DNA of 64,000 nt from Escherichia coli. Its GTDB lineage: Bacteria; Pseudomonadota; Gammaproteobacteria; Enterobacterales; Enterobacteriaceae. This document shows, piece by piece, positions 11,732 to 46,781 of this stretch; position 1 is the stretch's first letter, and every line of letters begins with the position of its first letter. Both the position numbers and the translations under genes were made by a program. The DNA lies in NCBI RefSeq assembly GCF_003018255.1, contig NZ_CP027440.1, one strand, 5' to 3'. A model generated the notes under the pieces. The model did no database searches. It saw only the letters and a list, made by a program, of their open reading frames with translations, and was not told the origin of the DNA.

Positions 11732-11920
11732 CAGGGACATCCTTTTATCATCGGGAATACGAAAGAAAAGGGAGAATAAACGTCTTACTTATAGAACAGT
11801 GAAGAATGCCACAATTTTACGCTTTGAAAATGATGACACTATCACAGTTGGCGCATTCATTAACGATAGGGTATAAGTAAAACAATAAGTTAACACCGCT
11901 CACAGAGACGAGGTGGAGAA

Positions 11921-15144: not shown

Positions 15145-15321
15145 ATCTTATCCGACCTTTCAGGCCAGATCCTCGGAAGGGGAAGTTGATTAATTTGTGT
15201 GAAATACACATTGAAAGCCGATTCGAAGAAAGTGAACCGGCATTTTCAGTGGCTAGTATAGCGTAAGGTACTGTAAAGCCGCCAGAGGGTTAAAATTCAG
15301 ACAGCTGAAAAATGAAAAACT

Positions 15322-15420
15322 GCCTGATGCGCTATGCCGAACAGGCCTACGCAGTCCCCGCAATATATTGAATTTGGACGATTTTGTAGGCCTGGCAAGG
15401 CGTTTACGCCGTATCCGGCA
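15322..15420. repeat. REP/BIME cluster between ytfL start and msrA end
   Basis: GCCTGATGCG...GGCCTAC and GTAGGCCTGGCAAGGCGTTTACGCCGTATCCGGCA motifs. Confidence 0.6.
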
Positions 15421-24350: not shown

Positions 24351-24450
24351 GCCTGATGCCGATTCGTAGGCCGGATAAGGCGCTCGCGCCGCATCCGGCG
24401 GTTGTGCGCTGAAGCCTGATGCGACGCTTACCGCGTCTTATCATGCCTAC
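24351..24450. repeat. REP/BIME cluster inside the ytfQ-ytfR intercistronic region
   Basis: Two REP units (GCCTGATGCCGATTCGTAGGCCGGATAAGGCG...GCATCCGGCG and GCCTGATGCGACGCTTACCGCGTCTTATCATGCCTAC). Confidence 0.7.
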
Positions 24451-30586: not shown

Positions 30587-30710
30587 GCCTCAGCCTGATA
30601 GAGTGTGTGTAGGCCGGATAAGGCGTTCACGCCGCATCCGGCATTTGAGCATAGTGCCTGATGCGACGCTTGATGCGTCTTATCAGGCCTACAGGTGCAC
30701 CGCATCCGGC
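30587..30710. repeat. REP/BIME cluster between convergent mpl and yjgA
   Basis: At least two full REP units (GTAGGCCGGATAAGGCGTTCACGCCGCATCCGGC; GCCTGATGCGACGCTTGATGCGTCTTATCAGGCCTAC). Confidence 0.7.
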
Positions 30711-40778: not shown

Positions 40779-40871
40779 GTTGCCAGCAGGTATTATATCG
40801 CCATAAATGCTACGAATATTATTGGATTCTCCTTATTATTTGCGGCGCTTTTTTCACTTACCGGAGGTTAT

Positions 40872-40925
40872 ATGGAACCTGATCCCACGCCTCTCCCTCG
40901 ACGGAGATTAAAACTTTTCCGGTAA
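40872..40925 (+). CDS. mgtL: mgtA leader peptide MgtL (17 aa, proline-rich)
   Basis: ATG preceded by ggaggt SD; encodes [17 protein letters not shown] within the mgtA 5' leader; the ORF-track 113-aa frame 40584..40925 is mostly non-coding. Confidence 0.75.
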
Positions 40926-41065
40926 GCCCGTCTTTTCACGGCGTTACCGGATGCGTAAGGCCGTGACGTTTTAACGTCCCTGCTCAGCTTTATTACCTTC
41001 AGGTAAGGCTTCGCCACGCCTGAAGACATTTCTGTACTGTTTCAGACAGTGCGGAGGGACTCCTT

Positions 41066-44426: not shown

Positions 44427-44888
44427 TTAATTGGCCAGCACCACATTATGGGAAAACTCTTTTTCACAGTATTTGCATTTGAGCGCGATGGCATTGGCGC
44501 GTTTTCGCACGGCAAAGCTGGAAGAAACCGGTTCGGCATGGCTGATACAGTTGCTGTTCGGGCAGACCAGCACATTGTCGATGCGCTCCGGCAGACTGGG
44601 GCGCGATTTGCCAACCACTTCATAGTTGTCGATACGGTTAACCGTGGCTTGCGGTGCATACAATGCCAGTTGATCTACCTGATCTTCACTCAAAAAGGTA
44701 TTTTCGATTTTGATCAGATCTTTGCGGCCCATCTCGCCAGAAGGCAGGTTCAGACCAATGGTGATCCGCTGATCCGTTTCGGTCAGCTTGAACAGACTCA
44801 ACAGCTTAAAACCGATCTGGGCGGGGATATGGTCAATTACCGTGCCGCGTTTAATAGCTTCAACCTGCAATTTATTATCGTGTGTCAT
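44427..44888 (-). CDS. pyrI: aspartate carbamoyltransferase regulatory subunit
   Basis: 153-aa ORF with C-terminal Zn-binding cysteines (CPNSNC...CKYCEKEF). Confidence 0.95.
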
Positions 44889-44900
44889 CTCTATTTCCCC

Positions 44901-45836
44901 TTACAGTACCAGATCGCGATTCAGAACCAGTGCCAGTAACGCCTGGCGAGCGAAAATCCCGTTGCCTGCTTGCTGGAAGTACCAGGCGTGAGGCGTTTTA
45001 TCCACATCCGTCGCAATCTCATCAACACGCGGCAGCGGATGCAGCACTTTCATATTGGCTTTGGCGTTGTGGAGATCGCTGGCGCGAAGAACAAACTGCG
45101 CTTTCACGTTGGCGTACTCGGACGGGTCCAGACGCTCTTTTTGCACGCGGGTCATGTACAGGATGTCTACTTCCGCCATCACTTCTTCAATAGAGCTGTG
45201 CAGACTCCAGGCGATCCCTTTTTCATCGAGCATATCAAGGATGTATTGCGGCATTGCCAGCGCATCCGGCGCGATAAAGTAAAAACGGTTGCCGTCGAAC
45301 TTCGCTAGCGCCTGGGTCAGGGAGTGAACGGTGCGGCCATATTTCAGGTCACCAACCATTGCGACGTGGAGATTGTCCAGACGCCCCTGGGTTTCCTGAA
45401 TGGTGAATAAGTCCAGCAAGGTTTGCGTCGGATGTTGGTTGGAGCCATCACCGGCATTCAGTACCGGTACATTGCCAGAAAATTCGGTGGCCAGGCGCGC
45501 CGCACCTTCCTGCGGATGACGCATCACTATCGCATCGACGTAAGTGCTGATAACCGAAATGGTATCGGCCAGCGTTTCGCCTTTTTTACCCAGTGATGTA
45601 TTGGCGCTGTCGGAGAAGCCCACCACGCTGGCACCCAGGCGGTGCATGGAAGTTTCGAAAGAGAGGCGGGTACGGGTAGAGGCTTCGAAGAAACAGCTGG
45701 CAATGACTTTGTGCTTCAACAGCTCTGGTTGCGGGTTTGCTTTCAGTTTCGCCGCTGTCGCCAGCACCAGATTAAGGTCATCGCGACTAAGGTCGTTTAT
45801 GGAAATGATATGTTTCTGATATAGCGGATTAGCCAT
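44901..45836 (-). CDS. pyrB: aspartate carbamoyltransferase catalytic subunit
   Basis: 311-aa [28 protein letters not shown] with STRTR carbamoyl-phosphate motif. Confidence 0.95.
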
Positions 45837-45839
45837 CTT

Positions 45840-45974
45840 TTATCTCCTGACGCCTGGGCAAAAAAAAGCCCCTCGATTGAGGGGCTGGGAATGGGTGATC
45901 AACGGGAAGAAAAACGGCAGGCCAGCGTCTTTTTTCAGACGCGGTAAGACAAAATGTCGAACACACTGAACCAT
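45840..45974 (-). CDS. pyrL: pyrBI operon leader peptide
   Basis: ORF track frame 45840..46040; start MVQCVRHFVLPRLKK at 45974 gives 44 aa; reads through the attenuator hairpin and U-tract. Confidence 0.75.
   Translation of the reverse strand: MVQCVRHFVLPRLKKDAGLPFFFPLITHSQPLNRGAFFCPGVRR
45861..45889 (-). terminator. pyrBI attenuator (intrinsic terminator inside pyrL)
   Basis: Minus-strand GCCCCTC-aatc-GAGGGGC stem followed by eight T; lies just upstream of the pyrB start. Confidence 0.85.
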
Positions 45975-46254
45975 ACATCCTCCCGGCAAATTGTCCGGCA
46001 TTATACTCATCGTCAGAAGCGGTGCAAGCATTTGATGCAATATTTTGTCAGCGCAAACGGTTTATTTGAATTAAAAGTCAAAATACATGCATTTTTATTT
46101 GATGTGATTCTGGGGGAGAACTGTCGTTCGGTATCAATAATTGCAGACATTTCCTGCTTTTTTCTTTTTCACTTTCACGCAATCAGATATGCATTTTATT
46201 CCATTCATCCGACTTATAGGGCGGAGTGTGAAAACGAACGGCTAACACTATTGC

Positions 46255-46650
46255 TTATAGCTCAGGGATGCGCGCTATCACTTTAATTTCAAAATCAAAG
46301 CCTGCCAGCCAGGTAACACCCACCGCCGTCCAGTTTGGATAAGGTGGGGCGCTAAATATTTCATTTTTGACCGTCATGATGTCTTCAAATTGTTTTTCTG
46401 GATCGGTATGAAAGCTCGTAACATCAATGATATCGTCAAAAGTGCATCCCGCAGCAGCCAGGGTCGCATGCAAATTATCAAATGCCAGTCTGACTTGTTG
46501 CTGAAAATCGGGTTCTGGTGTTCCGTCCTCTCGACTTCCTACTTGCCCGGAAACAAACAGCAAATCGCCGGAACGAATAGCCGCAGAATAACGATGCTCA
46601 GCATACAGTGAATGTCGGCCAGCAGGGAAAACAGCGGTTCTTTCTACCAT
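46255..46650 (-). CDS. yjgH: RidA/YjgF-family protein YjgH
   Basis: ORF 46255..46734; start MVERTAVFPAGRHSLY at 46650 gives 131 aa. Confidence 0.8.
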   Translation of the reverse strand: MVERTAVFPAGRHSLYAEHRYSAAIRSGDLLFVSGQVGSREDGTPEPDFQQQVRLAFDNLHATLAAAGCTFDDIIDVTSFHTDPEKQFEDIMTVKNEIFSAPPYPNWTAVGVTWLAGFDFEIKVIARIPEL

Positions 46651-46781
46651 TTGGTTATCCTCAAGATTTACGACATGAACAGAAGATTTATATTTACCGG
46701 GAGCCGCTTTTAGGGGGACGACGTTAGTAAACAAAACCCAGACATCATGGATAATGGCTGGGCTTAATTGAGCGTAGTCGG

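Follow-up and report, generated by a model that had tools for sequence, protein, structure and literature searches.

The pyrL leader frame and rho-independent attenuator of the pyrBI operon in an Escherichia coli genome: identity with K-12 and conservation of a leader frame that reaches the terminator hairpin

In this study, a short reading frame upstream of pyrB and the hairpin that it overlaps were analysed in a stretch of E. coli DNA of 64,000 nucleotides, which is called the window below. We are almost certain that they are the pyrL leader ORF and the rho-independent attenuator of the E. coli pyrBI operon. The element is already known and is not new; it is identical to the type example of K-12. 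The first-pass annotation had given it the same name and had called it a known element, and two curated family models, the RefSeq annotation and the alignment to K-12 all point to this identity. As a discovery it carries little weight, because it is a textbook device annotated in essentially every E. coli genome. The analysis confirmed the earlier call and added a comparative point, which concerns how far the leader ORF extends in other genera. Comparative classes of stop codons and a predicted helix between the pyrL Shine-Dalgarno sequence (SD) and a UCUUCCC segment are modest further additions. What was computed here is the anatomy of the element, its identity with K-12 and its conservation, including an ORF that extends to the hairpin in every sequence aligned. 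No result contradicted this reading.

All the elements described (promoter, pyrL, terminator, pyrB and pyrI) are on the minus strand (Table 1). The context of the leader on this strand is GGAGG-ATGT-ATG GTT CAG ... AGG AGA TAA-AAG-ATG GCT, and its translation gives the peptide MVQCVRHFVLPRLKKDAGLPFFFPLITHSQPLNRGAFFCPGVRR. The pyrL frame adjoins pyrB on the 5' side, on the same strand and with its own SD and ATG, as expected for a member of this leader family. It had been described as ending at 45840, 4 bp upstream of the pyrB ATG. The end at 45840 was right and the distance was not, for three nucleotides (AAG) intervene between the stop codon and the pyrB ATG (45836-45834), and the last base of the stop is four positions from the A. 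When the peptide was compared with the Pfam model PF08052 (PyrBI_leader), the score was 117.1 bits (cut-off 25, E = 3e-34) over residues 1-44 of 44. With the NCBIfam equivalog NF007587 ('pyr operon leader peptide'), it was 120.1 bits (cut-off 61), also over residues 1-44 of 44. As many as 55 ORFs of at least 20 aa overlap the 3.5 kb around the locus. The case for pyrL is carried by homology and conservation, because an ORF of this size alone is not beyond chance.

Table 1. Features at the pyrBI leader and elsewhere in the window.
Feature	Coordinates	Strand	Description
-35 hexamer TTGCAC, pyrBI promoter	46022..46027	minus	TTG block conserved 16 nt upstream of the -10 box
-10 hexamer TATAAT	46000..46005	minus	invariant in 13/13 aligned loci
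G+C-rich stretch GCCGGAC, discriminator-like	45993..45999	minus	between -10 box and start
Initially transcribed region AATTTG	45987..45992	minus	transcription start; UTP-sensitive reiterative transcription site according to the literature
pyrL Shine-Dalgarno GGAGG	45979..45983	minus	4 nt 5' of ATG; invariant in 13/13 loci
pyrL CDS	45840..45974	minus	ATG 45974-45972, 44 sense codons, TAA 45842-45840; Pfam, NCBIfam, RefSeq
'Pause' hairpin CCGCGUCU-GAAAAA-AGACGC-U-GG	45922..45944	minus	core GCGUCU/AGACGC; MFE and centroid folds
U-rich stretch CUGCCGUUUUUCUUCCCGUUG	45900..45920	minus	encodes L19 to L25; nearly invariant across 13 loci
Attenuator (intrinsic terminator) hairpin	45867..45886	minus	8 bp, loop AAUC; terminator scan and fold
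T8 (U) tract	45860..45867	minus	ends 23 nt before pyrB ATG
pyrB Shine-Dalgarno AGGAG	45844..45848	minus	inside last pyrL codons; GTCAGGAG invariant in 13/13 loci
pyrB, aspartate carbamoyltransferase catalytic chain, 311 aa	44901..45836	minus	Pfam OTCace_N and OTCace
pyrI, regulatory chain, 153 aa, second operon gene	44427..44888	minus	Pfam PyrI and PyrI_C
Mg2+ riboswitch (mgtA leader)	40857-40972	plus	Rfam at gathering score
naRNA4, two copies	24369-24447, 30612-30689	plus	Rfam at gathering score
ES239	11732-11854	plus	Rfam at gathering score
STnc450	15206-15263	minus	Rfam at gathering score
ES036	15343-15385	minus	Rfam at gathering score
Ysr276	58423-58617	plus	Rfam at gathering score

An alternative start at ATG 45978, which lies 4 nt 5' of the pyrL ATG and would use the same SD, was considered and rejected. 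It opens a 49-aa ORF in another frame (45829-45978, minus strand) that ends 8 nt inside pyrB. This ORF has no Pfam match, its ATG is missing from most orthologues, in which GGAAGCATG replaces GGATGTATG, and its frame is closed 5' of the hairpin in three of them. Some database variants of 'pyrL' (three entries) are frameshift chimeras of the pyrL frame and the ATG 45978 frame, and these probably come from homopolymer length errors or variation.

Alignment to K-12 MG1655, which had been named as the way to check the call, showed 0 differences in the 135 nt of pyrL and none from the -10 box to the pyrB ATG, and the transcribed leader is likewise free of any difference. Going upstream, the first change met is a single base of the -35 hexamer (TTGCAC vs TTGCGC), and a few substitutions lie beyond it. 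A query of 481 nt was matched in 5424 of 5426 complete E. coli genomes, in which the RefSeq annotation under the match was pyrL, pyrB and yjgH. The 177 nt from just 5' of the -10 box to the pyrB ATG were at least 99% identical in 5416 of the 5424 complete genomes. The K-12 MG1655 record has the same gene order (bdcR, bdcA, yjgH, pyrL, pyrB, pyrI, ridA), and the downstream order pyrB-pyrI-ridA-mgtA is common to K-12 and the window.

The structural genes of the operon were compared with K-12 as well. In pyrB, 17 of 936 nt differ, all of them synonymous, and the protein is identical. In pyrI, 9 of 462 nt differ, with one amino-acid change, D133A. Codon 133 of PyrI (44490-44492, minus strand; base 44491) is Ala GCC in the window and Asp GAC/GAT in K-12 and all the other genomes examined, and D133A is the sole pyrI difference from the closest genome, JNE23-011. 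When the 73 nt at 44455-44527 were searched, 5419 complete E. coli genomes had a match, but none at 100% identity, and the best reached 98.6% (one mismatch). D133A may be either a sequencing error or a private mutation affecting the zinc-domain region of the ATCase regulatory chain.

The protein search with the PyrL peptide returned 65 matches, all with PF08052, from Escherichia, Shigella, Salmonella, Citrobacter, Kosakonia, Phytobacter, Pluralibacter and Intestinirhabdus. Thirteen sequences were aligned, namely the locus of the window and 12 orthologous loci of other Enterobacteriaceae, found by exact protein look-up; the latter came from Salmonella, Citrobacter, Kosakonia, Phytobacter, Pluralibacter and Intestinirhabdus, and also from two metagenome assemblies and an assembled public sequencing run. 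In these 13 loci, TATAAT, ACAATTTGCC, GGAGGA, the first 25 or so codons, the small hairpin and the U-rich stretch are invariant or nearly so and in place, and the same is true of the terminator with its 7-9 T, GTCAGGAG and the pyrB ATG. The terminator hairpin starts 86-91 nt after the leader ATG in 13 of 13 loci, and the T tract of the orthologues ends 22-23 nt 5' of pyrB. Two entries for the pyr leader peptide carry the labels Pseudomonas aeruginosa and P. juntendi. Their contigs are 264 and 416 bp long, and the peptides have 100% and 76% identity, respectively, with that of E. coli; they are probable enterobacterial contamination.

The segment between codon 25 and the hairpin diverges among the orthologues in sequence and differs in length, and the register of the frame through the hairpin therefore varies. 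The peptide over the hairpin is QPLNRGAFF in some orthologues and SPSIEGLFF or RPLIEGLFF in others. Three classes of stop codon can be told apart. In S. bongori, C. amalonaticus and Kosakonia, a TGA lies within the hairpin (loop or 3' arm) and the peptide has 33-34 aa. E. coli and most of the other sequences stop 2-3 nt short of the pyrB ATG and encode 43-45 aa, and in Phytobacter and one metagenome contig the stop comes 8 nt inside pyrB, for a peptide of 48 aa. None of the 13 sequences closes the pyrL frame before +99 nt, a position in the hairpin loop. Frame +1 is closed by +37 in all 13, and frame +2, which has no conserved start, is closed 5' of the hairpin in three. Disruption of the frame in orthologues had been named by the first-pass annotation as the observation that would speak against pyrL. 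The distal frame, the register and the stop are indeed not conserved, but the ORF reaches the hairpin in every one of the 13 sequences. Judged from this alignment, the conserved feature is translation into the hairpin, not translation through it. This agrees with a model in which the ribosome acts sterically, which predicts that selection keeps the ORF open into the terminator, while frame, register and stop beyond that point are free to drift.

The conservation of the leader also bears on whether the PyrL peptide itself is active, either in cis on the ribosome, as an arrest peptide of the TnaC type, or in trans. Residues 1-25 are strongly conserved, with MVQCVRH.VLPRLKKDAGLPFFFPL invariant or nearly so across genera. 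In codons 1-25 the third positions are about twice as variable as the others (16 variable columns, vs 9 and 9 at first and second positions), and pairwise codon differences are 242 synonymous vs 305 nonsynonymous. However, these conserved codons coincide with the pause hairpin and the U-rich stretch, signals that would constrain the sequence by themselves, and the C-terminal third of PyrL is without conserved sequence, register or length (33 to 48 aa). A study of EF-P has shown that the pyrL region is a coupling-dependent terminator when it is fused in frame behind foreign sequence (PMC5021804). We consider an active peptide very unlikely.

The first-pass annotation had described a 44-codon frame running across a GC-rich hairpin and its U tract, and this was borne out: the leader ORF runs into and through the terminator, with codons 30-36 (Q30-A36) forming the hairpin and F37-C39 the T tract. 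Its position for hairpin and tract, 45861-45889, needed correction by 1-3 nt, to 45860-45886, while the element itself was as described. The hairpin is AGCCCCTC-AATC-GAGGGGCT, in which 6 of 8 pairs are G-C, and the first T of T8 doubles as the last base of the stem. Folded alone, the attenuator has -15.9 kcal/mol vs -6.5 +/- 2.2 for shuffled sequences (z = -4.4), and 0 of 200 shuffles were as stable. An intrinsic terminator is thus present in the leader shortly 5' of pyrB, as in other attenuators, and an RNA from 45992 to the U tract would be about 133 nt long. Both the smaller hairpin and the U-rich stretch lie between the start of the ORF and the terminator, which places the sequence elements of a pause region, as such, where they are expected. 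The stem of the hairpin at 45922..45944 is kept in the consensus fold of the 13 leaders, with one-sided changes only, from U-A to U-G, and its role is presumably polymerase pausing. By analogy with K-12, the U-rich stretch at 45900-45920 is proposed to be a cluster of UTP-sensitive pause sites.

One compensatory change was found in the attenuator stem in the 13-leader alignment, from C-G to U-A in Pluralibacter. For the hairpins in the 13-leader consensus fold, covariation is essentially nil (term -0.01 kcal/mol, one compensatory pair), because the leader sequences are too conserved. The hairpin structures rest on conservation and thermodynamics, not on covariation. No Rfam family matched the locus at its gathering score; a PyrR-binding RNA motif was likewise absent from the Rfam matches, both at the gathering score over the whole window and at E <= 1 in 44800-46800. 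On the plus strand, Chlorobi-1 (24.5 bits vs 50) and Hrs1 (22 vs 56.4) were rejected, because they reflect the terminator hairpin and its A-run read as reverse complement; on the minus strand, GcvB, Trp_leader and STnc100 were rejected as far below threshold.

The folds and the Rfam results also speak to a phenylalanine-sensing attenuator of the trp/pheA type, which would be read through the Phe codons F21-F23 (UUU UUC UUC) and F37-F38. We give this reading hardly any credence. Three consecutive Phe codons do lie 5' of the terminator, but they are the necessary reading of the U-rich pause stretch; a weak Trp_leader match does extend over 45860-45930, but with 19.7 bits vs a gathering score of 41 and E = 0.71. 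Such a sensor would pair an antiterminator with the 5' arm of the terminator, and neither the MFE and centroid folds nor the consensus fold gives that arm an alternative partner. With a ribosome stalled at F21-F23 (45914-45906), about 20 nt upstream of the hairpin, the hairpin would be left free to form, and the product of the pyrBI operon is pyrimidines, not Phe.

The consensus promoter scan gave no match at the locus, because the -35 hexamer matches the consensus at 3 of 6 bases only. The promoter was placed with the help of the literature and of two invariant blocks, TATAAT and AATTTG. We infer the -35 assignment from its position and the literature, and the GCCGGAC bases are a putative discriminator. 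The -35 hexamer is TTGCAC here, TTGCGC in K-12 and TTGATC in other genera and in arc-type E. coli. Around the start, ACAATTTGCC is invariant in 13 of 13 loci, and TATAAT-GCCGGAC-AATTTG at 46005-45987 is the sequence expected for reiterative transcription, with the right spacing from the -10 box. UTP-sensitive reiterative transcription at pyrBI is said to have been described by Liu, Heath and Turnbough in 1994. Studies have placed the 5' end of pyrBI at AATTTG, with AAUUUn stuttering at high UTP (PMC7039003, PMC6524683), and stringent control of pyrBI has been reported (PMC6524683, PMC6245113).

That pyrL is a chance ORF over an ordinary terminator of the upstream yjgH has practically no probability: short ORFs are abundant at the locus and yjgH is upstream on the same strand, but a promoter with an invariant start region stands between yjgH and the hairpin, PyrL passes two curated family models, and the reading is excluded because promoter, SD, ORF and terminator persist in loci with another upstream gene, namely an arginine-repressor paralogue or a DUF386 gene.

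The region upstream of the promoter differs among E. coli genomes. In 606 of 5424 (about 11%), homology to the window ends just upstream of the pyrBI -10 box (window about 46009-46260), and in these 606 genomes argF, a YfcC-family gene and an arginine-repressor paralogue are next to pyrL, an arrangement shared with Salmonella, Citrobacter and Kosakonia, and the -35 hexamer is TTGATC. Upstream of pyrL in the window and in K-12 are bdcR-bdcA-yjgH instead. From the stop in homology and the exchange of neighbours, there is therefore a rearrangement breakpoint at the upstream edge of the promoter. Upstream of the -35 hexamer, AACCGTTTGC and TGCATCA (46033-46058, minus strand) are kept in K-12-type E. 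coli, arc-type E. coli and Salmonella despite the different upstream genes. From their sequence these blocks might be an UP-like element or a regulator site, and AACCGTTTGCG is loosely like half a PurR-type box with one extra base. In the rest of the window, the RNA families that reached their Rfam gathering scores are given in Table 1, and the window has no tRNA genes.

The working of the pyrL attenuator can be outlined from what is known of K-12; UTP-sensitive pausing, coupling and read-through come from the literature on the identical K-12 sequence and would apply here by analogy. Transcription would start at AATTTG (45992), and a ribosome would load at the pyrL SD and ATG. The polymerase would make the small hairpin and then the U-rich stretch. 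When UTP is scarce, the polymerase would stall in the U-rich stretch and the leading ribosome would catch up. The ribosome translating pyrL would then be on or beside the 5' arm of the terminator (element 45886-45860), the hairpin would not form, and the polymerase would read through into pyrB and pyrI. When UTP is plentiful, the polymerase would not wait, the ribosome would lag, and transcription would terminate about 23 nt before pyrB. In this scheme the ribosome is the antiterminator, and neither a regulatory protein nor an alternative antiterminator hairpin would be required. The T3 run at the start would be a second, independent sensor of UTP through reiterative transcription: at high UTP, the nascent AAUUU would slip on the T3 run and give non-productive AAUUUn transcripts.

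Papers by Turnbough and colleagues reportedly describe the same sequence of events in K-12. Low UTP is said to prolong pausing in the U-rich stretch that follows the small hairpin, with the ribosome catching up and sterically blocking the attenuator, and at high UTP the polymerase reportedly outruns the ribosome and termination occurs at the U tract. As far as it is quoted in PMC5021804 and PMC4824070, the work of Roland, Liu and Turnbough (1988) found that the ribosome suppresses termination at the pyrBI attenuator. When coupling failed, the pyrL hairpin cut a downstream reporter about 18-fold (PMC5021804). The terminator has also been described as lying inside a 135-bp leader gene, the pause sites of which couple translation to transcription (PMC4824070).

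In the predicted folds, the pyrL SD GGGAGGA (45984-45978) pairs with UCUUCCC (45910-45904) of the U-rich stretch, both on the minus strand. For 12 of the 13 orthologous leaders the pairing is predicted with a probability of about 1.0. As neither segment varies, there is no covariation between them, and the pairing is weakly above that of shuffled sequences, which have a mean of 0.87 and of which 3 of 200 reach the observed value. The helix may sequester the SD in an untranslated or attenuated leader, or may be a purine-rich SD meeting a pyrimidine-rich partner. We know of no description of it. If it is real, the SD helix could form only once the polymerase is past the pause region. Ribosomes arriving late could then no longer load, and the coupled and uncoupled states would be more sharply separated. 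Separately, the three stop classes could give different translational coupling between pyrL and pyrB in different genera. Both the extra layer in the leader and genus-dependent pyrL-pyrB coupling are suggestions that we regard as unlikely.

The closest known system is the pyrL/pyrBI attenuator of E. coli K-12 (Turnbough and colleagues, 1983 onwards), to whose family the element belongs by every feature examined and which has the same peptide and the same DNA from the -10 box to the pyrB ATG; its hairpin, T8, pause hairpin, U-rich stretch and AATTTG all match the window. Next to it are the leaders with a pyrL of 33-34 codons in Salmonella bongori, S. enterica subsp. salamae, Citrobacter amalonaticus and Kosakonia, which have the same elements in the same places. 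In these taxa the ORF is closed by a TGA (AAT TGA GGG) that lies 8-9 nt short of the hairpin's 3' end; in E. coli it continues for 25 nt beyond that end. From the size of the ribosome footprint, a ribosome terminating at this TGA would still cover the 3' arm. The PyrR attenuators of Gram-positive bacteria (Rfam PyrR binding site) share with pyrL a pyrimidine-responsive termination upstream of pyr genes. In the PyrR system, however, the PyrR protein binds an anti-antiterminator RNA without leader translation, and a motif of this kind was not detected here.

The trp, his, leu, thr and pheA attenuators have in common with pyrL a short translated leader ORF and an intrinsic terminator before the first structural gene. 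In the trp type, as in pyrL, the read-out is the position of the ribosome relative to the RNA polymerase. Unlike these, pyrL is without the logic of regulatory codons and without alternative pairing of antiterminator and terminator, and because no antiterminator pairing is predicted, the device is set apart from trp-type attenuators. The signal of the trp type is charged tRNA, whereas that of pyrL is UTP, sensed through polymerase pausing, with the ribosome blocking the terminator.
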